Notes: a model not told the origin generated them from the sequence alone. Counted from the stretch's first letter, positions 44,001 through 64,000 are shown. The stretch is DNA of 64,000 nucleotides from Candidatus Margulisiibacteriota bacterium (GCA_041661965.1 JBAZTH010000001.1:226710-290709), one strand, 5' to 3'. A program made the numbers and translations.

Positions 44001-44201
44001 GATGCCTAATCCTAATCTTTATGCGACAAAAAAGCAATGAGATTGATCTCGCCGCTTCCAGGGTCATCGAAGTGCGATTGCCGGTTGATTTTTCCCGTCC
44101 GATATAGTAATCTCCACCTGTCCGCTCCGCCAGAAAAGCGGCCGCAAGGGCGGGGAACAACAATTACTTTTACGATTCCGAAATAAAGAGGAGGGTTTTT
44201 A

Positions 44202-45788: not shown

Positions 45789-45794
45789 AGAAAT

Positions 45795-49441: not shown

Positions 49442-49508
49442 AAGTGTTTTTTCAGCCTTTGCCGGTTTCGTTGATTTGTCGCCGCGGACGAATCAAGGGG
49501 AGGACGAA

Positions 49509-49943
49509 ATGAGAAAAAAAATTATTATTTTATTGGTTTTGGCGATTACCGGCCAGGCTTCCTGGGCGATACATACCGCGGTCCTGGGCGGGGTGCGCGG
49601 CGGCGCGGCCTTTGGCCTGCAGCTGGAAGAAAATTTAACGAGGAACTTAAAATACCGCCTGGGGCTTGAGGCGACTACCGGCAATAATCCGCTGATCTTT
49701 TTTGGCGGCGGTAAAATCGGCCTGACCGAGATCGACCGTATGCCGCTTTCTCTAAGTTTGGGCTTGGTGGCCTATGCCGGGCAAAATTCCAGCCTGGGAG
49801 CGGCCGTTGCGCTTGTGCTGGATAGGGTTTTCTCGGTTGATCCTTTATTTATTGAAGTCGGGAGCGATGTTGGGGGGGAGGCCAGGTTGGTGGCTCAAAT
49901 CGGCTACCGGATCCTGACGCCGCGTACCGAGAGCCTTCATTAA
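49509..49943 (+). CDS. Small secreted beta-rich protein (putative small OMP); paralog of 29837..30253
   Basis: Start at [10 protein letters not shown]. Shares [16 protein letters not shown] and QIGYRIL blocks with its paralog. Lies directly upstream of copA. Confidence 0.4.
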
Positions 49944-49968
49944 CCACCAGACTATTTTAACAACAGGG

Positions 49969-52437
49969 GTGAAAGCAATGGAAAAGATCAGTTTCTCTAT
50001 CTCCGGGATGACGTGTGCGTCCTGCGTCAGCGCGATCGAGAACGGATTAAGAAGCTTTAAAGGGGTTGTTTCCGCGAATGTTAACTACGCTTCCGAAAAA
50101 GCCTGGGTGGAATATGATCCGGCGGTAACGGACATCGCGGCGATTGAAAAAGTTATTGCGGCGACCGGTTACTCGGTTATAAAACCAAGCGCGGCGGCGG
50201 CGCCGGCGTCCGCAGGGAAAATCCTCCTGAAAGTGGTTGGGATGGACAATCCGCACTGTGTGGGAACGATTGGCGGGGCGGTGGGCAGTTTGCCGGGTAT
50301 CTTATCAAAAGATTTGCGGGTAAATGAAAAAGCCGTTATTCAGTATGACCCGGCCAAGGTTTCTGTCCAACAGATAAAAGCGGTCATTACGGAGGCCGGC
50401 TATATCCCGATCGAAGAGGCGGACGTTACGGAAGATGTCGAGAAGCAAGCGCGGGAAAAAGAGATCAGAAATGTTTGGACCCGCTTTCTCGGCTCCCTGA
50501 TCTTAAGCCTCCCCTTGTTTTACTACATGCTGATGGTTGCGGGCTTCCCAATGCCGGAATTCTTTATGAAGAACGGTCCCGCGATCGAACTTTTACTGAC
50601 CACCCCGATCATGTTTTTTGGCAGCCTATTTTTCACGCGGGGCATTCTCTCCCTGGTAAAAACCAGGACCGCCAATATGGATACGCTGGTGGCAATCGGC
50701 GTCGGAGCGGCCTATCTCTACAGCTTATATGTCACAGTCGCGATCTGGCTGGGGAATAGCGCTTTCGGCGTCGCCGACCTTTATTACGAAGTGGCCGGCA
50801 TACTGATCACCTTTATTCTGTTGGGCAAATACCTTGAAGCAGTGGCCAAAGGGAGAACTTCCGAAGCGATCAAAAAGTTGATCGGTTTGCAGGCCAAGAC
50901 CGCCCTGGTAATCAGGGCCGGAAAAGAGGTCGAGATCAGGATCGAAGAGGTCCAGGTCGGCGACATAATTGTGGTCAAGCCAGGTGGGAAGATCCCTGTT
51001 GACGGAACGGTGACCGACGGCCATTCGAGTGTCGATGAGTCGATGGTGACGGGAGAAAGCCTCCCGGTCGAAAAAAAGGCCGGCGATAAAGTTGTCGGGG
51101 CGACGATCAACAAAACCGGCTCCTTCAAGTTCAAGGCCGAGAAGATCGGGAAAGACACTTTCCTGGCCCAGGTAATAAAATTTGTCGAAGAAGCACAGGG
51201 GAGCAAGGCTCCGATCGAAGAGCTGGCCGACCGAATTTCCGCTTATTTTGTCCCGACGGTTGTTTTGATCGGCGCGGCTTCTTTTATTGTTTGGCTTTTG
51301 GCGGGGTTGGGGTTTGCCTTTGCCTTGACTACCTTTATTACCGTTCTGATAATCGCCTGTCCCTGCGCTCTTGGCCTGGCCACCCCGACGGCTGTCATGG
51401 TCGCTACCGGTCTGGGTGCGGAGCACGGCATCCTGATAAAAAATGCGGCCGCTCTGCAGAAAGCGGGTGGGTTAAAATGCGTCGTTTTTGACAAAACGGG
51501 AACCTTAACTAAGGGTGAGCCGGAAGTGACGGACACGGTGCTTGCCGGCGGGGGGACCGAAAAGGAGATACTTTTTTACGCCGGTGTTGCTGAAAAGAAG
51601 TCGGAACATCCGTTGGCGGAAGCGATCCTGAAAAAAGCAAAAGAAAAGGGGGTCGAACTCCCCGATCCGCAAAAATTCAGTTCAATCTCCGGCAAAGGGG
51701 TTGAGATAACGCTTAATAACGAGATCATTTTACTCGGCAATCGCAAGCTTTTGACCGATAAGAATATCGCGGTCGCCGACCTTGAGCCTAAAATACAGGA
51801 ACTGGAATCCCAAGGGAAAACAGTAATGATCGTCGCTAAAAACAATTCGGTCGTCGGCCTGATCGCTGTCGCGGATACCCTGAAGGAGCATTCAAAGGCG
51901 GCGGTCAAAGAATTGCGTCGGAGCGGCATTGAGGTCGTGATGATGACCGGCGACAATAAAAGAACGGGTGAAGCGATCGCCAGGCAGGTGGGTATCGATA
52001 GGGTTTTGGCCGAGGTCCTGCCTCAAGATAAAGCGGAGAATATAAAAAAATTGCAGGCCGAAGGCAAGAAGGTGGCAATGGTCGGCGACGGCATTAATGA
52101 CGCTCCCGCGCTCGCGCAGGCCGATATTGGGATCGCTCTTGGATCGGGGACTGATGTCGCCATCGAAACGGGGGAGATCGTGCTGGTGAAAGAAGACCTG
52201 CGCGATGTGGTCATGGCGATTGACTTAAGCGCCTATTCAATGAAAAAGATCAGGCAGAACCTTTTCTGGGCGTTCATTTATAACGTGCTGGGCTTACCCA
52301 TCGCGGCCGGGATCTTGTATCCTTTTACCGGTTTTCTTTTGAATCCGATAATCGCCGGCGCGGCCATGGCCTTCAGCTCGGTTTCAGTGGTGACAAACTC
52401 GCTTTTGATGCGGCGGTTTAAACCGAGGATCAATTAA
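49969..52437 (+). CDS. copA: Copper-translocating P1B-type ATPase with two N-terminal HMA domains
   Basis: GMTCASC in HMA1, degenerate HMA2 (GMDNPHC), CPC transmembrane motif, DKTGT phosphorylation site, GDGINDAP hinge. Confidence 0.9.
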
Positions 52438-52478
52438 AAGAAGCTGCGCAAACCAAGTTGATCGGTCAGACTTAGCAA

Positions 52479-52847
52479 TTACCCCTTTTTTCTGGTTGCT
52501 TTAATGACCACATCCAGCACCTCGTTCGGAGTAAAAGGCTTTTCGATAAAACCGCTCAACCCGTTTTTGGCGATCGACGCGACGACCTTCTTAACGTCGG
52601 CTTTGCCGGTAATAAAGATTACCGGCAGGTCGGGATGGATCACTCTGGCTTGGGCCAGCACGTCGTAGCCGCTGATCTTGGGCATCTCGAGATCGAGCAG
52701 GACGGCGTCGTAAAAGGCGGTTTTAATTTTATTGACGGCTTCTTCCCCGTCATAAGCGAAATCGGCCTCGAAACCACCGGCTTTTTTCAGGATTTCCTCA
52801 AGCGATGTCCTCACGATCTCCTCGTCGTCGGCAATTAATATTTTCAT
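52479..52847 (-). CDS. Stand-alone response regulator receiver protein
   Basis: MKILIADDEE...D...K REC signature with no output domain. GAGGTGG SD. Start placed at 52847. Confidence 0.8.
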   Translation of the reverse strand: MKILIADDEEIVRTSLEEILKKAGGFEADFAYDGEEAVNKIKTAFYDAVLLDLEMPKISGYDVLAQARVIHPDLPVIFITGKADVKKVVASIAKNGLSGFIEKPFTPNEVLDVVIKATRKKG

Positions 52848-52884
52848 AAGCCACCTCTTTATCCAATATTTTATATGTTTATTG

Positions 52885-53553
52885 CTATTGAGGCAAGCCC
52901 TGCCTGCCGGCAGGCAGGGAGAAATAGAATCGGGCGCCTTCGACGCCGATCCGGCCGCCCTGTGCCCCCAGGGCAAGTTTGCAAAAATAGAGGCCCAGGC
53001 CGGCGCTGGTTTTTAATTTTAATTCCGGATGTTCGGCCCGAAAGTCCTTGTCAAATACTTTTGACGCGTAGGCCTGCGGGATGCCGTCGCCGGCGGTCGT
53101 TATTTCGAACAGCGCGCCGTCCTTTTCTTTTTTAATGTTAAACGATACCTGTCCTCCGCGATCGACTTGCTTGACGGCGTTTAGCAGCAGGTCCTCTATT
53201 GCCATCAAGGTGAGCTCTTTGTCGGCCCTCACGGTCAGATTGTTATCGATAGCGACGGCAATTGTCTTGTCCTCTTTTCCCGCCAGTTGCCGGATCCAGA
53301 CCAGTTCTTTCTCGAATTCCCGGGCCGGGAATGAAGTTTTGTTAATGATAAGCTCGCCCTGCTCCGCGTTGTTAATAGAGCTTAGTTCCATCAGGAGCAG
53401 GGCGAGCTTTCTTGCGCTGAAATCGATATTGATCAGATATTTTTGCTGTTCCTCGCTGATTGGCCCGAGCGTGCCGTCCAGGAACAGTCCGATCGAGCCG
53501 GTGATGCCGGAGAGAGGATTTTTAAGGTCGTGCAGGATCAGATCGTCAAGCAT
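52885..53553 (-). CDS. Cytoplasmic histidine kinase (HisKA plus HATPase_c only)
   Basis: H-box HDLKNPLSGI, then N, G1 and G2 boxes. No sensor domain. Paralog of 58080-58907. Confidence 0.8.
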   Translation of the reverse strand: MLDDLILHDLKNPLSGITGSIGLFLDGTLGPISEEQQKYLINIDFSARKLALLLMELSSINNAEQGELIINKTSFPAREFEKELVWIRQLAGKEDKTIAVAIDNNLTVRADKELTLMAIEDLLLNAVKQVDRGGQVSFNIKKEKDGALFEITTAGDGIPQAYASKVFDKDFRAEHPELKLKTSAGLGLYFCKLALGAQGGRIGVEGARFYFSLPAGRQGLPQ

Positions 53554-53923
53554 TTTTTTTCTCTAGGGCGGCCTTGATCTTGGCCATCATGACGGTAGGC
53601 TCGAACGGCTTCAGGATATAATCGGCGGCGCCGGCCGCTTTGATCTTGGCCAGGGTCTGGGGCAGGGTGCTGGCGGTGAGAATGATCACCGGAATGAGGG
53701 CGGTTCCCTCCGAACTTTTCAATTCCTTGATGACCTGGTAGCCGTCTTTTTTTGGCATCCAGATGTCAAGGATGATCAGGTCGGGATGTCCGGCGCGGGC
53801 TTTCTGCAGGCCCTCTTCGCCGTCGTAGGCCGACTCCACCTCGTAGCCGCCGGCTTTGGCCAGCCGGAAGGCGAGCATTTCGACAAATTCTGTTTCGTCG
53901 TCAACGAGCAGTATTTTAGCCAT
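53546..53923 (-). CDS. Stand-alone response regulator receiver protein
   Basis: MAKILLVDDE REC signature. Start placed at 53923. Confidence 0.8.
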   Translation of the reverse strand: MAKILLVDDETEFVEMLAFRLAKAGGYEVESAYDGEEGLQKARAGHPDLIILDIWMPKKDGYQVIKELKSSEGTALIPVIILTASTLPQTLAKIKAAGAADYILKPFEPTVMMAKIKAALEKKNA

Positions 53924-53936
53924 TTTGCCTCTCCTT

Positions 53937-56734
53937 TTAAGCGGGATTTTTCGGGAGCGTGAAAGTGAATTTTGACCCGACGTTCTCCTGCGATTCGACC
54001 TGGATCCGCCCGCCATGGAGCTCGATCAGCGACTTGACGATCGCCAGTCCCAGGCCGTCCCTTTCTCCCCGCCGCCCGCGACCCGGCCGAATTGCGTGAA
54101 TTTTTCAAATAATTTGGGCAGATTGGCAGCGGCAATGCCCCGGCCGGTATCGGCGACGCTACATCCGACCTCCTTGTCGTTTTCCTCGCAGGATATTTCG
54201 ATCCGGCCTTTGTCCGTGAATTTCAACGCGTTGCCGATCAGGTTGGTCAAGACTTCGGTGATCTCGTCGCGGTCGGCGTTCAAGATGACCGGAGCGGCGG
54301 GCAGCCGTTCGATCAGTTCCAGCCCTTTCTTCTCCGCCTGCGGACGGAAAGCCGCTAAGGTCTCCCTCATCAGTTGTGCAATATCAAGCGGCTCCTTTTT
54401 GGCTTCCATCCGGCCCGATTCCAGGCGGGAAATATCGAGCAGATCGTTGACGATACGGGCCAGGCGGTCAATGCTCCGAAGGGTCGTCGATAGAAATCTG
54501 GTTTGCCCTTCATTGATCGGCCCATGAATTCCCTCCAGCACTTGCGCCACTCCTTCGTGGATGATCGCCATCGGGGTGCGTAGTTCGTGTGAAACGGTAT
54601 TGACGAAATCGTCTCTGATGTTGACCAGCCGCTTGAAATCGGTGATGTCGACAACGGCGCCGATGCAGCGGACGGCCTTGCCCTGTTTATCAGACTGCAG
54701 TTCGGCTTTCTCCCGGACCCATTTGACCCGGCCATCGACAATGATCCGGTGTTCTATGTCATATTGCTTGCTGACCAGCGCGGCTTGCCAGGCACTGATT
54801 ACGGCGGCCCTGTCGTCAGGATGAACAAAACCGACGAATTTATCGTAACTTACCGGCGCGCCGGCCGGAACGTTAAAAATCTTATAAGTTTCATCGGTCC
54901 AGGTCAGAATGTCGTTTGTGATATCGAAGTCCCAGCTCCCGACCAGGGCCAGTTCCTGCGATTTTTGAAGGCGGTAGCTCTCGATTGCCAGTTTTTCTTC
55001 AGCCTGTTTGCGCTGGGTTATATCGTCGTAAACGGCGACGACCTCGCCGGTCGGCAATTTATAGATATAATTTTCCCGCCAGCCGCTGATCCGCTGATCT
55101 TGATAAAGACCGATCGGGAAATGTTCCGGCTGTCCCGTCCGCCAGACCCGCAGCAGGATATCGAACAAACCGAATGACTTGACTCCCGGGAAGACTTCCA
55201 GCACGCCCCGGCCGACCACCGCTTGCCTGTTAACTTTTTCGATCTGCTCTGCCGCCCGGTTAATGTCCGAAATGATAAAATCTTCGCTGCCGTTTTGTCG
55301 GTAGAGATAAATGACGACGCCGCTGCTCATATTGTCAAAAAGCGACTGGAATTTTACGGCGCTGTCTTTAACGATGCGCTCCAAGGCTTTTTTATAAGTG
55401 ATATCGTTGACCGTTATAATGACGCCCTGGGGTTTTTCAGTGGCGTTTTTGGTAAGGGCCGCGTTGATCGAACCGACAAATTGACTGCCGTCCCGGCGCA
55501 GCAGCGAGTATTCGAGTTCCTTGATCAGGCCGGTCTCCACCGTTTGCTGAAAACTCTTGCGCGCGGCGTTCCGTTGCTCCGGCGTGACCAACTCGAAAAT
55601 GTTTCGGCCGATCATCTCTTCAAGATTTTTTATTCCGTTCATTTTAAGCGCTTCAGCGGATGCGTAGGTGATCTTGCCTTCGAGATCGGCCGCGACAACA
55701 GCGTCGGGGGAAGCGCTGACCAGCCGTTCGAAATTTTCCTTACTTTCTATCAATTCTATCTCGCCCTGGCGCCTGATGATCAAATAAAACCCGAAGCCGA
55801 GCAGTCCCAAGCTTAACAGCCCGATCGCGGCGGCGCGCAGCCCGATCCAAAGCATGGGCGAATAAATTTCCCGGGCGTCGACTTTTGAAATAATGAACCA
55901 GCTTGTGCCGGGAATAGGACGGCCGACCGCCAGGACCGGCACGCCCCGGTAATCGATACCGGTCAGCAGGCGGCTGACGCCTCTGACGGCCATGGCAGCG
56001 GGCAGATATTTCGTGCCGACCGGGAAATGAAGATTGAGAGCGGCGTCCTTTTTGTGGCGAAGTTCGTTCAAAAACACGACCTCGCCGCTTTGTTGCCTGA
56101 CGAGCAGGGTTTCGGCGGAATCGCTCGGCACCGGCCAGATCTGGATCAGGGGAAAGAGGAAAAGCTCGGGATCGATGCGCAGGATCAACACCCCGGCTGC
56201 GTCCCCGTCGTTCATGATCGGCACGCCAATATCCAGCTTGATCCTGCCGTTAGCGCCCCGATGAAAGTCGCAGAGCGTCGATTGTTTTGACCGCAATGTA
56301 TCCAAAATCAATTTTTGTTCATCAACGATATTGATCGGACTATTTTTGTTCTCCGACAGCAGGACAAGGCCGGCCCGGTTGACCAGGCACAGGTTCTCGT
56401 ATTTATGGTGTTTCTTCAATATCCTCATCCAGGTCAAGACTTCCTGCTTTAATTCAGCTGAGCGGCCGCCCTCGAGCCACAACAAAAACGGTTTCGTGAC
56501 TAAGGGAATTTCATTAATGAACGCGGCGTCTTCCATTTGTTTCTGATGCCAATTCTCGATCTGATCGACTTTCAGGTTGGTTATGGCGGTCAGGTTATTG
56601 CGGGCCAATATCTTTAATTGGTCGCGCTGGTTATTAAAATAAGTAAGTCCGATCAGGCAAACTGCCAGCAGGGTAAGCACGACAAAAATGAAAAACCAAA
56701 GGCCGCCGGCGATCCCGGACTTTGACCGCGTCAT
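53937..56734 (-). pseudogene. Multi-PAS sensor histidine kinase with a 1-nt frameshift in the G2 box
   Basis: N-terminal TM plus periplasmic sensor region, second TM, three PAS-like repeats, HisKA (VSHELRTPMA), then N/G1/F boxes. The track ORF ends at 54026 as ...[16 protein letters not shown]. Shifting one nt near 54051-54061 (ACGGCC where ACGGGCC is expected) restores [41 protein letters not shown] with a stop at 53937. Confidence 0.7.
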
Positions 56735-58083
56735 TGGTTTATTTTCCCTCCCCGGCGCTCCAGTTCGATTAGGAGCGAATCGATCTCTTTTTCCTGATCG
56801 ATCATTTTAAGTTCCCGGCCGATCGCCGCCTCTTTGAAGAGTTCCAGTTCTCCGAGCTTTTTCTTCAGATCGGCTTCCGTTTGCCGCTGGGCGGAAATAT
56901 CGGTAATGACGCCGAGGATGGCGCGGTCATTCTCGTAATCGATCAGTTTTGTCGAGATGATAGCGGCGAACTTTTCGCCGTTTTTCTTGACCAGCTCGCA
57001 TTCATAAGGTTCGACGTCTTCGCCCTGGAGATGCTTTTTGAGCGCCGCTTCGAACACGGACAGCGAAGTCGGGGCGGTTAGCGAACGGAAATCGAAATCC
57101 GGCGAAAGGAGCTCTCCCGGAGAATAGCCGGTGACCTCCGAACAGCATTGATTGGCGTAAACGATCTTGCCCCGATAGTTGATAAAGATCATGTTCGGCG
57201 ACTGTTCGGAGAGGGTCCGGAACCTGGCCTCGGACTTTTGTCGGTCCTGGTGGAACCTGGTTTCCGATTCAATGGCCAAAGCCTGGGTCCGGTCAAGCTC
57301 GGAACCGATCAGCCGGGAAATATAAGTTACGCCGGCGGCCAGCACGGCTATGATCAATAAGGCCAGAATAAATGAATTGAGCGCGAAATTGATCGTCCCG
57401 AAAGGGAGACGCGTATAAAGGTAACCTTGCAGAATGACGGTGAAAAAAAGGATCGGCGCGAACCAGCGCAGGACGAGAGGCCGCGCGCCGGTGCCGGCCA
57501 GATAGCTTAGGGGGAAATCGGCCGGACCGATCGCCAGGATCGCGGCTGATGCGAGACAGATCAAAGCCAGCGCGGTGTTAAGGGCCATCGGAATAGAGGC
57601 CCCTCCGTAAAAGAAGGGGAGGCCGTACAGGTAACCGGTCAGGACGGCGGCGTTGATCAGGAAGCCCGAAACAAACAGCACCCCTTCGGCCCGGCGATTT
57701 TTTCTTTTCAGGCCGAACAAGAAAAGCCCGAGGCCGAGCAGGATGAAATTTAGTTCGGTCAGCGGCGCCAGCCGGCCGACGGGAGCGGCGCCCAGCATTT
57801 CCGGACTGGACACCAGAAACCGTTCCAGGTCGAATAGCCGGTTCAGCGCCAAAAAAAGCAGGACCGCGGTCGAGGCTGATATTTTGACGGCCGCCCCGAT
57901 CTTGGTCCGCTCGAATAGCAAAGCCGCGGAAAAAATGATAAGTATGACCGCTGTGGACGGTGCCATCGGGATGTAGGCGGAATCAAAGCGCGCGAGTATC
58001 TGAAAGCCGGAGAGCCAGCCGAAGAGCGCCAGAACGGCCAGGGCCATTGCCGCCAGAGAAAGCGGCGCCACCAATCTGTTCAA
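56731..58083 (-). CDS. Membrane sensor protein: ~8 TM helices plus cytoplasmic PAS domain and coiled coil, no kinase domain
   Basis: Hydrophobic N-terminal half, PAS after residue ~270, C-terminal coiled coil. Overlaps flanking genes as in an operon. Confidence 0.55.
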   Translation of the reverse strand: MNRLVAPLSLAAMALAVLALFGWLSGFQILARFDSAYIPMAPSTAVILIIFSAALLFERTKIGAAVKISASTAVLLFLALNRLFDLERFLVSSPEMLGAAPVGRLAPLTELNFILLGLGLFLFGLKRKNRRAEGVLFVSGFLINAAVLTGYLYGLPFFYGGASIPMALNTALALICLASAAILAIGPADFPLSYLAGTGARPLVLRWFAPILFFTVILQGYLYTRLPFGTINFALNSFILALLIIAVLAAGVTYISRLIGSELDRTQALAIESETRFHQDRQKSEARFRTLSEQSPNMIFINYRGKIVYANQCCSEVTGYSPGELLSPDFDFRSLTAPTSLSVFEAALKKHLQGEDVEPYECELVKKNGEKFAAIISTKLIDYENDRAILGVITDISAQRQTEADLKKKLGELELFKEAAIGRELKMIDQEKEIDSLLIELERRGGKINQ

Positions 58084-58907
58084 GTGTTTTCTCCTTTGGT
58101 CGGCAGCGTGAAGTAAAATTTCGATCCCTTGCCGACCGCACTCTCGACTCCAATTTTTCCCCCGTGGGCCTCGACCGCCATTTTGCAGAAATAGAGCCCG
58201 AGTCCGGTATCGATTTTGGTCTTTAAATTTTGGGTTTCAACTTTGAAAAAGCGGTTAAAGAGCTTGTTCAGATATTCTTGGGGGATGCCTTCGCCGGTAT
58301 CGGAGGCTTCAAACAAAATTTCGTTGTGTAATGTGTCATGTGTTATGCGTAACGCGATCCGGCCGCCGGCGGGGGTGTGTTTTACGGCATTTGAAACAAG
58401 GTTTTCGATCACCCGGACCAGTAGCCTCCGGTCGGCGGAGATAGCCAATCCTTTATCAATCTGCAAAGTGAACGACTTTTTTCCCTGATCGGCCAGCAGT
58501 TCCAGCCAGGCGAGCTCTTGGGCAAGCTCATCAAGCTTGAATGAAGACCGATTCAAGGTCATTTTGTCCTCTTCCATCTTCCGGGTTTCCAGCAGATCCA
58601 TGATCAGGTTAAGCAGCTGTTTAGATCCGGTCCGTGATAGCTCCAGGGATTTCTTTTGGTCGCCGGTCAGCGGGCCGAGCAGCCCGGCCAGCATCAGCTC
58701 GGTCGAAGAAACAATGCCGGTCAGCGGATTCTTCAGGTCGTGGACGATCAGGTTGGTCAGATCGTCGCGCAGCTTTTCCAGGTTGACTATCCGCTCGCGG
58801 TTTTTTTCGATCTGGGCCATGGTTTGGGAGAGGAGCGATTCTTTGGTGCGGGCGAGGTGTTTAAGCTGAAAGTTCTCTAAATTACGTTCGATCAGCTCTT
58901 TATCCAT
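58080..58907 (-). CDS. Cytoplasmic histidine kinase with N-terminal coiled coil
   Basis: H-box HDLKNPLTGI plus N, G1 and G2 boxes. Paralog of 52885-53553. Confidence 0.8.
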   Translation of the reverse strand: MDKELIERNLENFQLKHLARTKESLLSQTMAQIEKNRERIVNLEKLRDDLTNLIVHDLKNPLTGIVSSTELMLAGLLGPLTGDQKKSLELSRTGSKQLLNLIMDLLETRKMEEDKMTLNRSSFKLDELAQELAWLELLADQGKKSFTLQIDKGLAISADRRLLVRVIENLVSNAVKHTPAGGRIALRITHDTLHNEILFEASDTGEGIPQEYLNKLFNRFFKVETQNLKTKIDTGLGLYFCKMAVEAHGGKIGVESAVGKGSKFYFTLPTKGENT

Positions 58908-58908
58908 T

Positions 58909-59637
58909 TTACAATAGCTTTAGGTATGTCCCGCATTCGAGTCCTTTCAGGAAATCGATCGCGGGCTTAACCTGCTCTTTTTTGATGATCGAGCCGTGCT
59001 GGGAGGCGATCATCTCGATATCGTATTGTTCTATTTTTTCCAGCACCAGCTTCATGATCTCGCGGGAAGGCATGTAGGGCTTATGGAACAGGCTCATCTG
59101 GTCATGATAGTTGGCTTTCGCGAACAGGTCCCAATCGTCGGAAAATGCGCCGAAGAGGTCGCCGGAAAAAAATATTTTTGACTTAGTGTCGTAGGTGGCG
59201 AAAGCTCCGGGCGTATGCAGGTAGGGGGTGGGCTGAAAGACCAGTTCCCGGCCGCTTTTCAATTTGAGCCGATTGTTGTTTTTTTCAAAGAAATAAAAAG
59301 GTGAGCGCACCCCGTAATGCAAAATGAGAAACGACACCCGCTCAAAGGTGGCGATCTTCAGCTCCGGATTATTGATCAGGTCTTCAAACACGGGCAGGGA
59401 ACCGGCAAGATCGGGGTCCTGGTGGCTGACGATGATGGTCGAGATCTTTTTCGGATCGATCAGTGAAATGACTTTGCGCGCGACGATCGGGAAATGGGGA
59501 GCGGAGCCGGGGTCGATCAGGACCGCCTCATCGCCGTCAACGATCAAATATGGATTGCAATGAAAATTGGCGACCTGGTCGTAAAAGCCGACCCAGTAGA
59601 TGCCTTCCGCGATTTCGATCGCTTCATCGTAATTCAC
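58909..59637 (-). CDS. Metallo-beta-lactamase-fold protein resembling the diiron domain of flavodiiron / oxygen-binding diiron (ODP) proteins
   Basis: IYWVG..D....FH N-terminus, SHQDPDLAGS (HxHxDH-like replaced by HxD...) and C-terminal His/Asp ligands. No flavodoxin domain. Confidence 0.5.
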   Translation of the reverse strand: MNYDEAIEIAEGIYWVGFYDQVANFHCNPYLIVDGDEAVLIDPGSAPHFPIVARKVISLIDPKKISTIIVSHQDPDLAGSLPVFEDLINNPELKIATFERVSFLILHYGVRSPFYFFEKNNNRLKLKSGRELVFQPTPYLHTPGAFATYDTKSKIFFSGDLFGAFSDDWDLFAKANYHDQMSLFHKPYMPSREIMKLVLEKIEQYDIEMIASQHGSIIKKEQVKPAIDFLKGLECGTYLKLL

Positions 59638-59696
59638 TATGCGGAAATTATAACGTATAAAATTCGCGGATTCAACAAAATATTTCTGGACAAGTA

Positions 59697-59722
59697 ATCA
59701 GCGCGAGCCTATAATTTTGCAT
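59697..59722 (+). promoter_or_regulatory. Sigma70-like promoter TGGACA-17-TATAAT for the PAS kinase gene
   Basis: TGGACAagtaatcagcgcgagccTATAAT, 10 nt upstream of the ATG at 59731. Confidence 0.4.
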
Positions 59723-59730
59723 AGAATATC

Positions 59731-61509
59731 ATGGGACCAGGCGTTTATATCGTTATAATATCTTTGGCGCTCGGCATTTTATCGATCCCCATCGACTTGC
59801 TCTTCCATGCCGTCTTTTTGCATGAAGCCCCGTCGCTAGCCGCCCTTACCGAGCCGGAAAATATTTTCCACTGGTCCATGCTGCTCTTCTCGTTCGTCGT
59901 TTTCGGGCTGGTGATGGCGTCGATCTCAAGGCGCCGTGAAGCGGCGGCACAAGAGCACCGGCGGCTGATCGACGAAATGACCAAGCTCAAGCTGGGGGTC
60001 GAGCGCTCATACGAGGCGATCTTTATTACGGATACCGACGGGAAAATAAATTATGTCAATCCCGGATTTGAAAAATTGTACGGCTTTTCCCGCGCTGAAG
60101 CGATCGGCCAAACGCCCAGGCTGATCAAGTCCGGGACGCTTTCGCCCGACGTTTACAATGATTTTTGGAAAACGCTGTTAAGTAAAAAGGTCATAAGCGG
60201 TGAAATTGTCAACAAAACAAAAGCGGGAAAGCTGCTCAATATTGACGGCACGGCGCTCTCAATCCTGAACGATCGGGGCGAGATCATCGGATTTATGGGC
60301 ATTCAGCATGATATTACCGAACATAAGCAGCTGGATGAAGCCCTGCGCCGGTCCAAGGAAGACTGCGAAAAAGAAGTTATCGCGCGGACTGCCGAACTGG
60401 AACAGCTGCGGCGGCGGTACGAACTGGTCTTGAATTCCGCGGCCGAAGGGATCTTTGGCCTGGATCTCAATGGCAATCACACTTTTGTCAATCCGGCGGG
60501 GGCAAAACTGCTCGGCTACGAAGTGACGGAGCTGATCGGCCGGCCCAGCCATTCAACCTGGCATTACAAGCGGCTCGACGGCCGCCCGTATCCCAAAGAA
60601 GAATGCCCGATCTACGCTGCTTTCATGGAGGGGAAGGTACACCATGGCTCCGATGAAGTCTTCTGGAAAAAAGACGGCGCCAGCTTCCCGGTCGAATATA
60701 TGAGCGTGCCGATCCTGGAGTCGGGCAAGATTGTCGGCGCGGTCGTGACTTTCAGCGATATTACCGAACGCAAGCAGGCGGAAGAGGAAAAGATAAAAGA
60801 CGTGGAGCTGCACGAACGCGACCGGATGAAGACGGAGTTCCTCTCGATGGTCTCTCACGAGATGCGGACACCGATCACGCCGATCAACGGCTACCTACAA
60901 CTGCTATTGTCCGGCAAAATTGGTCCGTTAACGCCCGAACAAAAACAGACGATGCTGCTGATGCAGAGACAGTCAAAACATTTGTTAATCCTGATCGACA
61001 GCATTATCGATGTTTCACGGATCGAAACCGGCCGGACGCTGGTGCTTTCGAAAACGCCGGTGTTCCTGGACGATTTGTTGAAGCGGGTGATCGAGGCCAT
61101 GGGCGACCAGTTCGAGGAAAAAGGGATCGAGCTTAAGGCAGAGCTATCCGCGCACCTGCCGATCCTGGCCGATGAGGCCAAACTGGAGCGGGTGATCACG
61201 AATATACTGGGCAACGCGCTCAAATTTGTCCCCCGCGGCGGCTCGGTCGCGGTCGGCGCCCGGGTCGAAGCTGGGGCCGCCCGGGTCTCGTTCGCCGACA
61301 ACGGCATCGGGATCGATCGGGAAAACCTCGAGAAAATATTTGAAAAGTTCTATCAGGTCGACAGCTCCAACACCCGGGCGGCCGGCGGGATCGGCATGGG
61401 GCTGACGATCGCCAGGGAGATCGTCGAAGCGCACGGCGGCAAGATTTGGGCCGAATCGGACGGTCTGGGCAAGGGTGCCGCCTTGATCTTCACGCTACCG
61501 GAGGAATAA
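59731..61509 (+). CDS. PAS/PAC sensor histidine kinase (2 TM, 2 PAS, HisKA, HATPase_c)
   Basis: Two PAS repeats, H-box VSHEMRTPIT, then N, G1 and G2 boxes. Confidence 0.85.
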   Translation: MGPGVYIVIISLALGILSIPIDLLFHAVFLHEAPSLAALTEPENIFHWSMLLFSFVVFGLVMASISRRREAAAQEHRRLIDEMTKLKLGVERSYEAIFITDTDGKINYVNPGFEKLYGFSRAEAIGQTPRLIKSGTLSPDVYNDFWKTLLSKKVISGEIVNKTKAGKLLNIDGTALSILNDRGEIIGFMGIQHDITEHKQLDEALRRSKEDCEKEVIARTAELEQLRRRYELVLNSAAEGIFGLDLNGNHTFVNPAGAKLLGYEVTELIGRPSHSTWHYKRLDGRPYPKEECPIYAAFMEGKVHHGSDEVFWKKDGASFPVEYMSVPILESGKIVGAVVTFSDITERKQAEEEKIKDVELHERDRMKTEFLSMVSHEMRTPITPINGYLQLLLSGKIGPLTPEQKQTMLLMQRQSKHLLILIDSIIDVSRIETGRTLVLSKTPVFLDDLLKRVIEAMGDQFEEKGIELKAELSAHLPILADEAKLERVITNILGNALKFVPRGGSVAVGARVEAGAARVSFADNGIGIDRENLEKIFEKFYQVDSSNTRAAGGIGMGLTIAREIVEAHGGKIWAESDGLGKGAALIFTLPEE

Positions 61510-62341
61510 GCCATAAAGCGCGCCTATTTCATCAAGACTTACGGCTGGCCACTTGGCCTGAAGTTTACCATAAGCTAAAAGCCGCCCTGGAATTAATTTT
61601 TAAGCTCTCATTAATTGACCAAGCTACCGGCTAAGATCGCAACATCCCTATATATTTTTACCTTGCGCGCTGCTGCTGCCTGCTATAAAGCGCTAATAAC
61701 TCATTATTGCTTTTATTTGCTGAACAGCATCCGTTCTCCTTCCTTAGCAAACAAAACCAGCGTACAGCTCATTTATTCAGCCTTTGAGAAGAAGTCTCAA
61801 GCTCTTTGCGCCATGATTAATGATCAGCGTTCCTGCCCCTTCAGTTTGATTTAACGCTCATATTAAGCAGGAGGTAAAAAATAGCGGTCGTTAATTGATT
61901 TTATTAAAAATCACGCTTCCCATAGTTGGCCTTTTACCGTCGGGAGAACTCCCGCCCGCCGCCTCTTCGAGGCATTGTCCGCCGGAGGCGGACAATCTCC
62001 GCCAAAGGCGGGATGGCGGGCTTAGCTGGCCATTTTCCCCACTAACCGCAAACCGCTCCGTCACCTTTCAAGCCACGAACCATTTGCTAGCCGCTCCCTC
62101 CATCTTTACCCCCTCCCTTTCCCTCCGCTTTGAAAAACCCCGCCCCCCGGGAACAAGACAAGAGGAGTGGGAGAGTGACGGAAAGTCGGCAATATCCCTG
62201 GGGGTATTTCGCCATATCGACCGAAAAGTTCGCATAATCCCCTAAAAATAGCTTGATATTATAAGAAATAGTTGGTTCCAATAGTTTCTGGCAAGGATTT
62301 TGCTTTCTACTTTAGCGGAGCCAAACAAGAGGGGATAAACA

Positions 62342-63799
62342 ATGCCAGGGAATGTTGAATACTTAACGTCTAACGAAATTAACGCGCTATTGTCCGCGAT
62401 CGATGATACTCGCGATCTGGCGATTGTCCTTCTCTTTTTGAATACCGGGATATTTCTCAACGAGCTGGTTAGTTTAAAAACCGATTCAATTAATTGGGAA
62501 AAGAAGATACTCGCGGTTGCCGGTAATAGGGGGCGAGAGATTCAATTAAACGATCAACTCTTTGAGGCTTTGGCCAAATGGTCCAAAGTTAGAGTGAATA
62601 CTCAAATCACCGCGTTGTTTACGACCACCAAAGGAGAGGTCAACGCTCTCTCTGCCCGAACGGTCGATCACCTTATCCGCAAATATGCCGCCCAGGCCGG
62701 GATCGGCAAAAAGGTTAATGCCAAGATGCTCCGGCATACTTTCGCGGCCAGGCTCTGCCGGGAAGAGGTCTCGATCGACCGGGCGGCCGCCATTCTTGGG
62801 ATTACCGACGCTGAATCGATCAGCCGCTATATTAAAGTGGCAAAAGAGCCGCCGAAAGTCAACCTCGTTCCAGAAGAGGTCGATACTCGCCCAATATTAG
62901 TTAAATTCCTAACCAAACTCTTTCCAACCAAGCCGAAGATTGCCAAGCCGCTTACCACTATCAAAGGAGCGATTCTCCCTAGCCCAACCGAAGTTGCTTT
63001 TGGGCGGGAGGGGGTAATTGAGGATATCAAGGGACATCTCAAGAAAGGGCAGTCGGTTCTTTTGACCGGCCAGGTGGGGATTGGGAAAACGCATCTCCTT
63101 AAAAATATTGCCGGATCATTTGGCGCCACCACTTTTTACTTTTCCTCTCCTTCGCCGATGCGTGATCTGCTCAAACAATTGCATGAAAAGCTAAATTGTC
63201 CGGGCGATAAGCTAAACGGCCGCTCTTCTTCAAAGGAGATCGTTGGTCAGATTACCTCTGCTCTCGAAGCCCCAAAAACCATTCTGATCATCGATAACCT
63301 GGATAGTTTGAAAGCGTCGGATATCGAGACTTTTCTTACGCTTCTCGAGAAGTTTACTATCCTGGGGGCGGTTGAAGAGCCGAAACCGAAGCTCAAGTCG
63401 GTTTGGTGGAAGTTCAAGCGGATCGACCTGAAACCATTGAGCGAAGAGGCGGCCAAAGAGTTGATCCGCTACTTGACCCAGAATCTTTCCATCACCGATT
63501 ACGAGATGCTCGAGACCAGGATTCTTTCTTTGTCCAACCATCTGCCGGTCGCTATTGTCGATATGATCCACCAGGTCAGCCACCGGCCGGTGGTCAATAA
63601 AGAGGTTATTCGCGATGTTTATCATGAGGCGGGAGTTTATTTTCGCGACTGGACCCCCGTCATCATCATTCTTTGGGGGATGGTGATAGCCTTCCGGTTT
63701 GTGGCTCTTGGCATGCACAGCTTTGAAGGGTACATCTTGGCCGGCTTTGGTACCGCTCTGCTCGCGACGGTGCGGGTTTTTATGTTCAAGATGAAATAG
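62342..63799 (+). CDS. Fusion protein: tyrosine-recombinase-like catalytic domain with degenerate active site, plus AAA+/P-loop ATPase, plus C-terminal TM helices
   Basis: Residues 1-170 align to the integrase catalytic fold (LRHTFA box II, ISRYIKV Tyr box), but box I Arg is replaced (TGIFLNEL) and two His positions are substituted. Walker [12 protein letters not shown] and Walker B ILIIDNLD follow. Two C-terminal hydrophobic helices. Confidence 0.55.
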
Positions 63800-63851
63800 C
63801 AACTGTCCGACGTCAAGGAAGTCCGATGTCCGAGGTCAAAGGATGGGAATT

Positions 63852-64000
63852 GTGAAAATAGAAAAATTTGAAGATATTAAAGCCTGGCATGAAGCTAGAG
63901 AATTAACAAAAAGCATTTATGCTCTGACCTCAAAGGGAAATTTTGACAAAGATTTCCGCTTAAAAGATCAGATTAGAAGCGCGGCCGCTTCCATAATGGC
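63852..64000 (+). CDS. Four-helix-bundle protein (TIGR02436-like), 5-prime partial at window end
   Basis: [26 protein letters not shown]...[12 protein letters not shown] matches the conserved N-terminus of this family. GTG start with AAGGA SD. Lower GC than the rest of the window. Confidence 0.6.

Follow-up and report, generated by a model that had tools for sequence, protein, structure and literature searches.

A recombinase-fold AAA+ fusion protein opens a conserved, predicted envelope operon at the apparent left end of a variable island in Margulisiibacteriota

At the end of the window (the whole 64,000-nt stretch of DNA analysed here), a gene encoding a tyrosine-recombinase fold joined to a membrane-anchored AAA+ NTPase opens a conserved and previously undescribed three-gene operon, which its predicted products place at the cell envelope. 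We demonstrate its architecture, residue losses, synteny and breakpoints, and the insertion of cassettes into it. Margulisiibacteriota are an uncultured phylum that is sister to Cyanobacteria. We read 61510-64000 as the left-hand end of a genomic island of variable content within a Margulisiibacteriota (WOR-1-type) chromosome; for this island and the envelope complex proposed below, taken as one explanation, we regard the balance as about even. The region contains the following features.

61525..61560, + strand: synteny breakpoint, where homology to the related loci L010 and L011 begins, and relic 5' end of a miaB gene
61554..61634, + strand: orphan C-terminal tail of a large-serine-recombinase-type ORF (..WPEVYHKLKAALELIFKLSLIDQATG*), in a different frame from the miaB relic
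61638..61654, + strand: conserved 17-mer CGCAACATCCCTATATA, with a small covarying hairpin just before it
61900..62020, no strand assigned: hypervariable GC-rich hairpin segment (hairpins 61977-61993 and 61999-62011)
62180..62249, + strand: promoter/operator-like element of three phased repeats, GTCGGCAATATC / TTCGCCATATCG / TTCGCATAATCC
62342..63799, + strand: 485-aa fusion gene (degenerate Xer-like domain, AAA+ ATPase, C-terminal membrane hairpin)
62360..62845, + strand: tyrosine-recombinase catalytic-fold domain, aa 7-168, no core-binding domain
62990..63616, + strand: AAA+/STAND-like NTPase core and helical lid, aa 217-425 (Pfam AAA_22, AAA, AAA_16)
63647..63793, + strand: two-helix membrane hairpin, aa 436-484 (hydropathy, model)
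63800..64000, + strand: start of an inserted cassette (472 nt whole, 63800-64271 in extended coordinates)
63804-63839, + strand: left inverted-repeat arm with GTCCGA units, the cassette's left end
from 63843, + strand, truncated at the window end: four-helix-bundle ORF (23S_rRNA_IVP/TIGR02436; Pfam/NCBIfam)

The N-terminal part of the fusion protein has the catalytic-domain fold of tyrosine recombinases by three measures: a Pfam match to Phage_integrase (PF00589, residues 7-168, E 3e-26), Foldseek matches to XerA (5hxy, E 1e-9) and IntI (2a3v), and phmmer matches in the PDB to the XerC-like 4a8e (E 7e-14), 5hxy and 1a0p. There was no Phage_int_SAM match in the protein, and its AF2 model (pLDDT 87.7) shows no additional N-terminal domain. 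The preliminary description held that Arg-II and Tyr remain and that Arg-I and both His are gone, and alignments bear this out: Arg-I is replaced by Phe38, His-I by Lys128 and His-II by Ile154, while Arg131 and Tyr163 are kept, Arg63 occupies the beta-hairpin Lys position and H132 follows R131. The window protein therefore reads F38, R63, K128, R131, H132, I154, Y163 in place of the tyrosine-recombinase constellation, and the family consensus likewise lacks Arg-I, His-I and His-II with Arg-II and Tyr invariant. Judged by these residues, the domain is catalytically degenerate. An ordinary XerC/D was rejected on the catalytic residues, the absent core-binding domain and the NCBIfam scores, all of which fall far under their family cut-offs (XerA reaches E 2e-31, yet 109.6 bits against a cut-off of 220).

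The Walker A/B ATPase and the two C-terminal transmembrane helices of that description were recovered by Pfam (AAA_22/AAA, residues 236-340), hydropathy and the model. Walker A reads G243-x2-G246-x-G248-K249-T-H251, with G243, K249 and T250 invariant or almost so, and Walker B reads LIID318-N, with D318 invariant. Together with the core and lid, and with Foldseek matches to clamp-loader (RFC) and RuvB structures, these motifs identify an AAA+/STAND P-loop NTPase; because Walker B has N in the next position and lacks the catalytic Glu, it may not be a motor but a switch. The hairpin consists of two hydrophobic helices, at 436-461 and 464-482 (in the model, 438-458 and 461-484), and its motif R452-F-x-A-L-G-x-H-S-F-E462-G-Y464-I-L-A-G-F-G is nearly invariant, R452, E462 and Y464 completely so.

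This architecture is genuine and unusual, as had been suggested, but it is not a lone oddity. Of the 147 fusion homologues found, about 110 are full length, with identities of 40-64%, and Margulisiibacteriota have more than 100 full-length ones. The same architecture occurs in more than 100 clusters (NCBI, JGI, ENA and Logan assemblies) and in 22 loci of GTDB genomes, which a genome scan could retrieve with the hairpin motif, specific enough for the purpose where alignment A4 was too divergent. An assembly chimera is rejected by the recurrence of the fusion in more than 100 homologues from independent assemblies. The two outcomes that would have overturned the initial reading, a chimera or homologues resembling XerC/D with a full catalytic set, thus both failed to appear among these fusions and in their degenerate consensus. 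Some genomes carry two to four paralogous copies. A literature search found nothing relevant on the fusion architecture or on YdjM with integrases.

Among 152 fused proteins the commonest catalytic pattern was F-R-Q-R-N-I-Y, and 17 distant members had the full R-x-H-R-H-H-Y. In L152, L154 and L156, fusions with an intact catalytic set are each directly followed by a YdjM-like gene, among neighbours that include Rep_trans, HTH_17, ParA, a methylase and a Gp49/HTH pair; in L156 the next gene is a weak Beta-barrel_RND_2 match. Rosetta-stone evidence ties the parts together: L155 has them unfused, in the order Poly_export, MerR, a 304-aa ATPase/TM protein, YdjM, a separate full-length tyrosine integrase and HTH_17. 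The distant relatives always have the YdjM-like partner and mostly plasmid-like or element-like neighbourhoods. By sequence comparison, the window protein belongs to a degenerate branch within a wider family, other members of which retain an intact catalytic set or have the integrase encoded separately by an adjacent gene.

The gene order fusion, YdjM-like, Poly_export holds in about 20 of 24 Margulisbacterial loci. The YdjM-like partner, which diverges in step with the fusion (55-68% identity), has five predicted membrane helices, an invariant His/Asp set resembling a metal site, and a beta-rich and coiled-coil C-terminal domain that is predicted to face the periplasm and whose structural likeness to adaptors is weak or generic. 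The third protein has a signal peptide, a Poly_export domain (E 2e-19) and a hydrophobic helix at its C-terminal end. Weak Wzc- and MFP-like structural matches were seen among the operon proteins; the match to Wzc has E 0.095, and neither a Wzz nor a BY-kinase domain turned up. The rate at which the operon diverges is roughly that expected of vertically inherited genes.

Breakpoints relative to 90-93% identical relatives fall at 61525 and immediately after Poly_export, and the flanks left of 61525 differ in all three genomes compared (the window, L010 and L011). The relic at 61525..61560 matches the 5' end of a miaB-type methylthiotransferase gene (..AYFIKTYGWP..) that has lost its start codon here; identical codons begin an intact 449-aa MiaB gene in L042 (MIKEGKNRRYFIKTYGCQMN..), and third-position variation across loci points to a coding origin. 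The serine-recombinase tail belongs to a conserved left-end element, 61525-61654, that is 72% identical to L007 over 131 nt, whereas the fusion proteins are just 59% identical. Its peptide (I/V/L)YH(K/L)LKxVLE(L/F)(I/V)(F/Y)K is kept in eight distinct loci and, in L042, runs on in frame from the duplicated last 40 aa of a 573-aa serine recombinase. A serine recombinase adjoins the element in L042 and L150, and in L004 one lies at the segment's far end, overlapping tRNA-Glu.

The 17-mer CGCAACATCCCTATATA is exact in the window, L004/L012, L007, L010 and L011 and has two substitutions in L013 and L023, on the + strand every time and 0.6-4.3 kb upstream of the fusion gene. The hairpin preceding it shows compensatory changes at 4 of 9 pairs, and identity to L010/L011 across 61610-61709, at 0.97/0.96, exceeds the neutral level of 0.88/0.80 taken from codon position 3. 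The left-end element is missing from several Margulisbacterial loci (L006, L008 and L009), the flanks examined contain no inverted second copy of the 17-mer such as a transposon end would have, and no tRNA or tmRNA target lies at the boundary in the window's terminal region or L158. In make-up, 61525-61654 is an attL-like junction of a miaB 5' fragment and a recombinase tail, with flanks that differ between close relatives. We propose that 61525 is a relic attachment junction at which a miaB-type 5' fragment was joined to about 110 nt of element DNA, encoding the orphan large-serine-recombinase tail and finishing with the conserved 17-mer, and that the remainder of the 61510-62341 tract would be the element's leader. 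Because a search of the 21 kb downstream of the window found no attR, no miaB, intact or otherwise, and no serine recombinase, the island may be a fixed remnant rather than a mobile element.

The other conserved part of the tract is the triple repeat, phased at 21-22 nt, which is placed about 160 nt before the fusion gene in the window and overlaps a sigma70-like consensus match at 62209-62238. An nhmmer profile located it 85-162 nt upstream of the module's first gene in the window, L010, L011, L014, L006, L007, L008, L020, L017 and L028, and in L004/L012 and L013 it lies 2.6-3.5 kb upstream, ahead of extra genes. The repeat is kept in at least 10 genomes; a search by exact criteria had returned 3 loci only, and the profile was needed to show its generality. 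Across 62110-62309 identity to L010/L011 is 0.94-1.00. The phased TCGCAATAT-like repeats are candidate binding sites for the recombinase-fold domain.

In other respects the tract is as the preliminary description had it. The terminal region is lower in GC (0.480 versus 0.531 for the whole window) and is the GC minimum among all 2491-nt windows (mean 0.532, sd 0.018; 0.16% as low), a fall that is real but of about 5 points only. About 830 nt are indeed non-coding: the ORFs in 61510-62341 are all short (57-116 aa), none is a credible gene or has a Pfam match, and they are not preserved as ORFs in two close relatives, where indels of 8, 10 and 18 nt occur. The polypyrimidine run at 62095-62150 exists (79% pyrimidine, close to the window maximum), as do the hairpins GTCCGCC-gga-GGCGGAC at 61977 and CCGCC-aaa-GGCGG at 61999. 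Any functional weight for these hairpins fell away, as they occupy the tract's least conserved part: identity to L010/L011 in 61900..62020 is 0.78/0.58, under the neutral level, and the segment is replaced in L011. Being hypervariable, they are not functional candidates; as far as sequence comparison goes, the conserved parts of the tract are the relic att junction at its 5' end and the promoter/operator-like repeat. That the tract is a structured RNA, for example an HDV-like ribozyme, or a decayed pseudogene is barely credible. The hairpins exist, the miaB-like and recombinase-tail remnants are genuine coding relics and an Rfam check, as proposed at the outset, gave a weak match to drz-agam-1 (HDV-like) at 61939-62020; this match, however, is far under the gathering score (18.1 bits versus 37, E 2.5) and lies within the least conserved segment, where an 8-nt deletion breaks a hairpin in the closest relative, L010, and we rejected it. 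A decayed copy of the extra genes of L004 was rejected too, as tblastx shows no similarity to those genes, which stand at the equivalent position, and the absence of Pfam matches in the tract's ORFs also speaks against a pseudogene.

Immediately after the fusion gene lies a cassette whose four-helix-bundle ORF, taken in full, matches PF05635 (E 1.5e-31). It is missing even from a close relative with a 98.6% identical fusion protein; in L010 and L011, which lack it, the fusion stop is followed by the ydjM-like start codon within 12-15 nt. The gene thus behaves as an inserted cassette, in keeping with its earlier description as a mobile-type element. The GTCCGA/GTCAAGG repeats noted at the same time are present (GTCCGA three times within 24 nt, at 63805, 63821 and 63828, versus 19 + strand copies in the 64 kb), but rather than standing alone as direct repeats they make up an inverted repeat's left arm. 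The cassette ends TGTCCGACGTC...GACGTCGGACA are inverted, and its RNA folds with a terminal stem of about 28 bp (z = -4.1). An S23p/four-helix-bundle ORF within stem-forming terminal inverted repeats is what marks an intervening sequence (IVS), an element that RNase III excises from 23S rRNA; this one sits between the fusion and ydjM-like genes, not inside a 23S rRNA helix. A second four-helix-bundle cassette of the operon has GT-rich flanking repeats that are direct, not inverted.

More generally, the gaps between and after the operon genes are cargo hotspots. In this genome they hold the two four-helix-bundle cassettes and a sigma-70-region-4 protein within the operon, and a Type IIG restriction enzyme, a helicase and a GIY-YIG/T5orf172 protein after it; homologues about 70% identical to the GIY-YIG protein are annotated in Nitrospirae and Prolixibacteraceae. 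The variable stretch stops at a conserved DprA-like gene, with a trio of tyrosine recombinases further on, 14 kb downstream. The same gaps in other genomes contain HD, Bro-N, AbiEi/AbiEii, HNH, DUF559, DUF4062 and DUF2971 proteins. Four genomes have differing restriction or defence genes between Poly_export and the conserved DprA-like gene, and L009 has no defence genes after the operon. The suggestion that the window closes on the edge of a mobile-like region is supported, as the variable segment runs on past the window.

Of the functions that the operon might have, DNA handling at the envelope seems the most likely. In the Margulisbacterial clade the recombinase domain would have lost recombination and become a DNA-binding head, carried by an AAA+ switch or motor that is anchored in the membrane, and docking of the ATPase onto the YdjM-like partner would fall to the invariant hairpin. 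Fusion, YdjM-like and Poly_export proteins could then assemble into a single complex across the envelope, which would act on element DNA at the membrane to transfer it, take it up or retain it. Genes for a relaxase, T4SS, pilus or competence were not found nearby, nor relaxosome or T4SS genes within 21 kb. A wider proposal, which we find possible though doubtful when taken whole, is that a recombinase domain (fused or adjacent), the AAA+ hairpin NTPase, YdjM-like and Poly_export make up an undescribed envelope-spanning DNA-handling machine. Mobile elements of several bacterial lineages would carry this machine, which might serve, for instance, to transfer, secrete or take up DNA with a minimal set of parts. 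Its recombinase-fold protein would be at once DNA-processing enzyme and membrane motor, and the version fixed in Margulisbacteria would be one whose nuclease centre is inactivated. Four-helix-bundle 'IVS' elements would, separately, be mobile cassettes bounded by hairpins, able to invade the spacers of operons in addition to rRNA.

A role in defence had also been suggested, and we consider it unlikely. The three genes would form an anti-phage or anti-plasmid system (abortive infection or exclusion) in which the dead recombinase detects foreign DNA or intermediates of recombination, the STAND-like NTPase responds by oligomerising and the YdjM-like protein, as a membrane hydrolase, acts as effector. 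Most of the genomes examined do have restriction-modification or other defence genes next to the operon, defence genes (AbiE, for example) have also inserted within it, and the NTPase weakly matches nSTAND, NACHT, Avs and mad8 models and has a D-N/D-D Walker B like switch-type NTPases. However, in comparisons with PADLOC-DB v2 models the fusion's matches were weak and confined to the P-loop region (best mad8, E 4e-5), and two fusion relatives, YdjM-like and Poly_export had none at E <= 1e-4; as no match for the fusion, its two distant relatives or both partners was significant, a defence role is not supported. A secreted Poly_export component is atypical of known defence systems, the operon is far more widely and stably present in the phylum than the neighbouring cargo, and relatives in other lineages keep an active-looking integrase set beside replication, partition and excisionase genes.

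The recurrence of the module with Rep_trans, ParA, HTH_17 and separate integrases in those lineages also weighs against an ordinary chromosomal envelope or polymer-export function, which strikes us as distinctly unlikely. Here a PCP/OPX-like pair would work with a regulatory ATPase, the N-terminal domain would be just a DNA-binding autoregulator and the surrounding variability an unrelated hotspot. The OPX domain, signal peptide and C-terminal hydrophobic helix of the third protein would fit, as would the weak Wzc/MFP-like structural matches, the vertical-looking divergence with one or few copies per genome, and phased repeats within the operon's own promoter region; the operon might belong to the chromosome itself, with hotspots arising next to it by chance. 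Yet none of the examined loci links it to glycosyltransferase, Wzx/Wzy or ABC exporter genes, the left end is a recombinase-derived junction, and some genomes have 2-4 paralogues. It is very improbable that the fusion protein is an active recombinase that integrates the island or inserts cassettes as an integron does. The run of variable genes on the same strand does have a recombinase-fold gene at its head, Arg-II and Tyr never vary and distant relatives have the full set, but the Margulisbacterial clade has Phe, Gln/Lys and Ile for Arg-I, His-I and His-II and no core-binding domain, and other recombinases are at hand (serine in related loci, the tyrosine trio 14 kb downstream). Integrons combine an active IntI bearing a characteristic extra domain, a single attI and cassettes that each end in an attC hairpin. 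On the integron-integrase model of NCBIfam, where the cut-off is 265 bits, the fusion protein scores 40.7, and its catalytic residues are lost. Cassettes stand at several differing junctions rather than one attI, and the bounds share no common or attC-like repeat (inverted GTCCGA in one, direct GT-rich in the other).

To our knowledge, tyrosine recombinases are soluble enzymes, with the exception of a few recombinase-like relaxases. A family whose catalytic domain, intact in some members and degenerate in others, is joined to an AAA+ NTPase with a membrane anchor and invariably accompanied by a YdjM-like membrane protein points to an undescribed coupling of DNA processing to the cell envelope and offers a testable function for the uncharacterised YdjM/DUF457 family. 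The series from separate integrase through active to inactive fusion should be useful for studies of domestication, and the locus gives a fixed point by which hotspots of defence genes and other cargo can be located in an uncultured phylum. The cassette is an IVS-type element found soon after its insertion into the spacer of an mRNA, and it bears on the old question of what such elements are.

Several known systems share features with this locus. With Xer-type recombinases (archaeal XerA, XerC/XerD), the N-terminal 170 residues of the fusion share the catalytic-domain fold, Arg-II and Tyr, but the fusion lacks the core-binding domain, has lost Arg-I, His-I and His-II, has Arg for Lys and carries the AAA+ NTPase and membrane hairpin. 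Wza-Wzc, tripartite pumps with HlyD/AcrA adaptors and the ComEA-ComEC-ComFA-DprA set are envelope-spanning exporters or DNA-uptake machines. The predicted parts here recall them in a cytoplasmic NTPase at the membrane, a polytopic protein with a beta-rich and coiled-coil outer domain, a secreted Poly_export-domain protein and a DprA-like gene conserved downstream; unlike them, the locus has no Wzz, BY-kinase, RND/ABC pump, Competence/ComEC or ComFA helicase domain. SXT/R391 ICE hotspots and P2/P4 defence hotspots hold cargo at fixed spots in conserved backbones. The locus likewise has backbone genes in fixed order and variable same-strand, often defence-related insertions at fixed intergenic positions, but its backbone genes are unrelated, and in the Margulisbacterial version no transfer, capsid or replication genes were identified.

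Similar in domain make-up, on which this likeness rests, are the MobK, TcpM and MpsA relaxases, which are encoded on mobile elements and consist of the catalytic domain alone, without arm- or core-binding domains, plus extra unrelated segments (PMC8152469, PMC6414798). The fusion shares this plan of a catalytic domain only with unrelated additions, as defined for them (PMC8152469), and its distant relatives also resemble them in a full catalytic set and plasmid- or element-type neighbours (Rep_trans, HTH_17, ParA, Gp49/HTH). In contrast, the window protein has a degenerate pentad, no oriT or conjugation genes lie nearby, and a membrane-anchored AAA+ NTPase as C-terminal extension is found in the fusion and in none of the three. 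The cassette, for its part, resembles the 23S rRNA IVS of Coxiella and Leptospira (PMC4990558) in ORF family (PF05635/TIGR02436), size (472 nt versus 428 nt), terminal inverted repeats that pair over about 28 bp to enclose the ORF, and short direct repeats immediately ahead of its start codon. Where the IVS occupies helix 9, 25 or 45, however, the cassette lies in a protein-gene spacer of an operon and, unlike the IVS, replaces the next gene's ribosome-binding site.

A gene near the right end of the window encodes a protein in which a Xer-like recombinase domain is fused to an AAA+ NTPase that ends in a membrane hairpin. The layout first described from the sequence (integrase fold, ATPase and two C-terminal transmembrane helices) agrees with the Pfam domains and with two hydrophobic helices predicted at the C terminus. 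The fusion is genuine rather than an assembly chimera, as 147 relatives were found among 5.8 billion proteins, ~110 of them full length (~480-500 aa, 40-64% identity) and of the same layout. Positions past 64000 in the features below are extended window coordinates, taken from an independent contig (L001/L158).

59731-61509: PAS/HisKA/HATPase_c kinase gene (Pfam)
62180-62249: 60-70-nt element with three TCGCAATAT-like repeats at 21-22-nt spacing, overlapping a sigma70-like consensus match
62342-63799, forward strand: fusion-protein ORF, 485 aa; Phage_integrase at residues 7-168 (E 3e-26), AAA_22/AAA/AAA_16 at ~220-340
65588-66385: second insert, 798 nt, with a sigma-70-region-4 gene and another four-helix-bundle gene

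Relatives with organism names are mostly Margulisiibacteriota, WOR-1 or Saganbacteria, with a few labelled Patescibacteria or Parcubacteria. Scanning GTDB genomes for the hairpin motif F[VIL][AS]LGxHSFE gave 22 loci; all lineage-named records were Margulisiibacteriota, WOR-1, Saganbacteria or Marinamargulisbacteria, and the remainder were labelled merely 'uncultured bacterium' or 'bacterium'. The scan included the complete genome WOR-1 RIFOXYB2_FULL_45_9, whose fusion copy is 98.6% identical to that of the window, and some genomes carried 2-4 paralogous fusion genes. Divergent paralogues, 35-61% identical to the window protein, occur in KT_bin-0310 (L024, L026, L027 and L030) and RIFOXYB2_FULL_46_45 (L012 and L021), and each paralogue with enough flanking sequence has its own ydjM-like gene.

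Family alignments showed Arg-I replaced by Phe (TGxFLxE), the beta-hairpin Lys by Arg63, His-I by Gln or Lys and His-II by Ile or Val, with Arg131 invariant and Tyr163 nearly so. The alignments thus bear out the pattern proposed in the preliminary description, namely loss of Arg-I and both His positions with Tyr and Arg-II retained; the window protein is unlikely to be an active recombinase. Walker A is conserved, and Walker B reads hhhhD318 followed by Asn and so lacks a catalytic Glu. The best-conserved part of the protein is the membrane hairpin, in which R452, E462 and Y464 are invariant. A confident AlphaFold model (pLDDT 87.7) has an N-terminal domain resembling XerA and IntI, and a C-terminal part resembling the AAA+ modules of clamp loaders and RuvB. 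Residues 171-485, used as the query of an exhaustive phmmer search, gave 417 matches (163 below 1e-10), including ~300-aa proteins consisting of the NTPase and hairpin alone and ~480-560-aa proteins (22-30% identity) that again carry an N-terminal Phage_integrase domain. The complete catalytic set (GLRVSE, HxLRH, GH...Y) is present in 17 such distant fusions. The Margulisbacterial proteins therefore form a branch with degenerate catalytic residues within a family combining recombinase domain, AAA+ NTPase and membrane hairpin.

The fusion gene has regular partners. In ~20 of 24 Margulisbacterial loci two genes come after it in the same orientation, one for a YdjM-like membrane protein (430-460 aa) and one for a Poly_export protein (175-197 aa), the latter with a predicted signal peptide at its start and hydrophobic helix at its end. 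A YdjM-like gene also lies directly after the intact-catalytic fusions of three loci outside the phylum (L152, L154 and L156/L157), among neighbours that include Rep_trans, HTH_17, ParA, a DNA methylase, a Gp49/HTH pair and DnaA_N/Exo_endo_phos; the next gene in L156 gave a weak Beta-barrel_RND_2 match. At another locus, L155, the parts are unfused, with genes for Poly_export, MerR, a 304-aa NTPase/hairpin protein, YdjM, a full-length tyrosine integrase and HTH_17. The recurrence of the partnership outside the phylum, with the parts unfused in L155, is Rosetta-stone evidence that the recombinase, anchored NTPase and YdjM-like protein act together.

The operon lies in a variable island whose edge, as had been suggested, falls within the window. 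The independent contig is identical to the window across a 2294-nt overlap and reaches ~19 kb past its end. Across the extended locus, 90-93% identity to the close relatives L010 and L011 is restricted to 61525-63799, 64272-65587 and 66386-66912, and each of the three genomes has its own sequence to the left of 61525 and past the Poly_export stop codon. Homology to L010 resumes leftward at 40225-44039, so that 17.5 kb of window DNA is absent from that part of L010. The ~17.5 kb at 44040-61524, extra relative to RIFOXYB2_FULL_45_9, separates the island edge from a conserved 521-aa gene and encodes sensor kinases, response regulators and metal (P-type) ATPases.

To the right of the operon, the window genome encodes a Type IIG restriction enzyme (PADLOC E 9e-302), a helicase and a GIY-YIG/T5orf172 protein, whereas the equivalent flank of L010 encodes RNase_H_2 and SNF2 proteins and that of L007 an EcoRI-type methylase, GmrSD and an OLD-family protein. 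The T5orf172/GIY-YIG gene (L001:9854-11047) adjoins the Type IIG gene and has thousands of homologues at ~65-70% identity, some annotated in Nitrospirae and Prolixibacteraceae, which indicates that this cargo has spread horizontally, and recently. The variable stretch closes in four genomes at a conserved DprA-like gene (175 aa). Farther along, the window genome has three tyrosine-recombinase genes in tandem, and L007 has at least two up to the point where that locus stops.

L158:12529-13056, L007:18780-19316, L011:9563-10087 and L015:12222-12641: stand-alone DprA-like (DNA_processg_A) gene, 78-94% identity
L158:17544-20745 (~79.2-82.5 kb extended): three consecutive tyrosine recombinases of 306, 287 and 464 aa, ~12 kb downstream of the operon

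We take this trio to resemble 'recombinase in trio' (RIT) elements. Its first two members have homologues in the same relative position at L007:19780-21521 (47-50% identity), where the locus ends within the second. In other genomes, genes found between operon members encode HD, DUF2254, Bro-N, AbiEi/AbiEii, HNH, DUF559, DUF4062/HATPase_c_4, DUF2971 and SEC-C proteins; the pattern is what a conserved backbone that takes up cargo at hotspots would show. In another Margulisbacterium, a complete toxin-antitoxin (abortive infection) pair, AbiEi/AbiEii, stands between the ydjM-like gene and the Poly_export gene (L016:12030-13662). Proteins of 75-105 aa consisting of sigma-70 region 4 only are encoded in or beside the operon in two lineages (L001:3883-4110 and L004:12649-12966), and that of the window genome matches the C terminus of the PADLOC MzaA model (E 3e-17).

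At 61510-64000, GC content is 0.480, compared with 0.531 for the whole window. The lower-GC region reported earlier is therefore real, being the minimum among all 2491-nt windows (mean 0.532, s.d. 0.018), but the drop is modest in size. Other elements of the preliminary description also stood: the GC hairpins (61977 and 61999), the pyrimidine-rich run (62095-62150), the four-helix-bundle gene (a truncated ORF from 63843 matching 23S_rRNA_IVP/TIGR02436) and the ~830-nt non-coding tract. Between the kinase and fusion genes (61510-62341) we found no credible gene; the ORFs of 57-116 aa in this tract have no Pfam match and are not preserved in two close relatives, which carry indels of 8, 10 and 18 nt there. 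Three contigs from other assemblies with an identical fusion gene (L001, L002 and L003) start at window positions 61707, 62108 and 62334, all inside the tract, which suggests strain-level heterogeneity or assembly-breaking repeats.

The left end of the tract is conserved far past the close relatives. An element at 61525-61654 shows 72% identity to L007 across 131 nt, includes the 17-mer CGCAACATCCCTATATA, exact in five lineages, and was found at six further loci in a metagenome scan. Its first ~30 nt correspond to the start of a MiaB-type coding sequence (Y[FY]IKTYG[CW]); the gene is intact in L042, where it opens with MIKEGKNRRYFIKTYGCQMN. The following ~80 nt encode, in another frame, the conserved peptide (I/V/L)YH(K/L)LKxVLE(L/F)(I/V)(F/Y)K. 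In L042 this peptide runs on from a duplicate of the 3' end of a gene for a large serine recombinase (573 aa). Perfect inverted repeats of 141 nt enclose that recombinase gene, as does an 88-nt direct repeat of the 5' end of miaB. We read the left-end element as a probable relic attL, composed of a host miaB half-site and an element arm with a recombinase tail. L150 has a related serine recombinase next to the element. Within L042:9562-14060, where miaB is intact, the 88-nt repeat surrounds a 1-kb two-gene insert, an arrangement that looks invertible or tandemly integrated at a miaB 5' attachment site. In L004:17588-19149, at the right edge (far end) of a segment with the fusion gene, a 508-aa large serine recombinase ORF overlaps an opposite-strand tRNA-Glu(CTC) at its 3' end.

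Further right, the hairpin patch at 61900-62020 is less conserved (identity 0.78 and 0.58 to L010 and L011) than synonymous sites (0.88 and 0.80), and the hairpin is partly deleted in L010; for these reasons we rejected an Rfam HDV-like match there (18 bits, E 2.5). Conservation rises above that of synonymous sites at 62110-62341. A profile search with the 62180-62249 element placed it 85-162 nt upstream of the module's first gene in ten genomes; in another three it precedes extra genes. The element is a candidate promoter/operator, to which the degenerate recombinase domain may bind.

Two insertions interrupt the operon. In L010 and L011 the ydjM-like start codon lies 12-15 nt past the fusion stop codon, whereas the window genome carries at this spot a 472-nt segment (63800-64271) that replaces the ribosome-binding site. 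Its ends are inverted (TGTCCGACGTC...GACGTCGGACA) and made of GTCCGA/TCGGAC units, with GTCCGA occurring three times within 24 nt (63805-63833), and its predicted RNA fold has a terminal stem of ~28 bp (MFE -145.6 kcal/mol, z -4.1). In Coxiella, the 23S rRNA intervening sequence (IVS) is 428 nt long; RNase III cuts its terminal stem of 28 bp, and heptamer repeats precede the start codon of S23p (PMC4990558). The window cassette is similar in size, terminal stem and repeats before the start codon, but sits in an mRNA spacer. The GTCCGA direct repeats noted earlier before the bundle gene are thus present, but form one arm of the inverted ends of an IVS-type cassette. The second insert has different junctions: ~55-nt GT-rich direct repeats flank its bundle gene (L001:4124-4179 and 4604-4659; 65830-65885 and 66310-66365 extended), and a CAATAGG duplication bounds the whole.

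What the operon does can be approached from its parts and setting. One main rival explanation, a defence or exclusion system, has restriction genes for company in the flanks; PADLOC gave only weak matches for the fusion protein, restricted to the P-loop region, and no match for two fusion relatives, the YdjM-like protein or the Poly_export protein. The other, a plain envelope or polymer-export function, would suit the Poly_export protein. PHROGs matches were generic, to integrase and clamp loader for the fusion protein and weakly to hydrolases for the YdjM-like protein. We infer that the operon most likely handles DNA at the envelope, in transfer, uptake or retention, because of its DNA-enzyme ancestry, mobile-element contexts and conserved DprA-like neighbour. 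In such DNA handling, the N-terminal recombinase domain would have become a DNA-binding head, the NTPase without the Walker B Glu could serve as a nucleotide-dependent switch or slow motor, the invariant hairpin would hold it at the membrane and contact the YdjM-like protein, and the Poly_export protein may complete an envelope-crossing complex. We rate the locus as the backbone of a genomic island that includes a domesticated recombinase; there is a real, though smaller, chance that the operon represents a new type of DNA machine in the envelope.

Full-text literature searches found nothing on a recombinase-NTPase-membrane architecture, and no described system combines the parts assembled here. 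The closest known relatives of these parts are Xer recombinases, AAA+/STAND NTPases, YdjM/DUF457, OPX proteins and IVS elements, together with the recombinase-like relaxases MobK, TcpM and MpsA.
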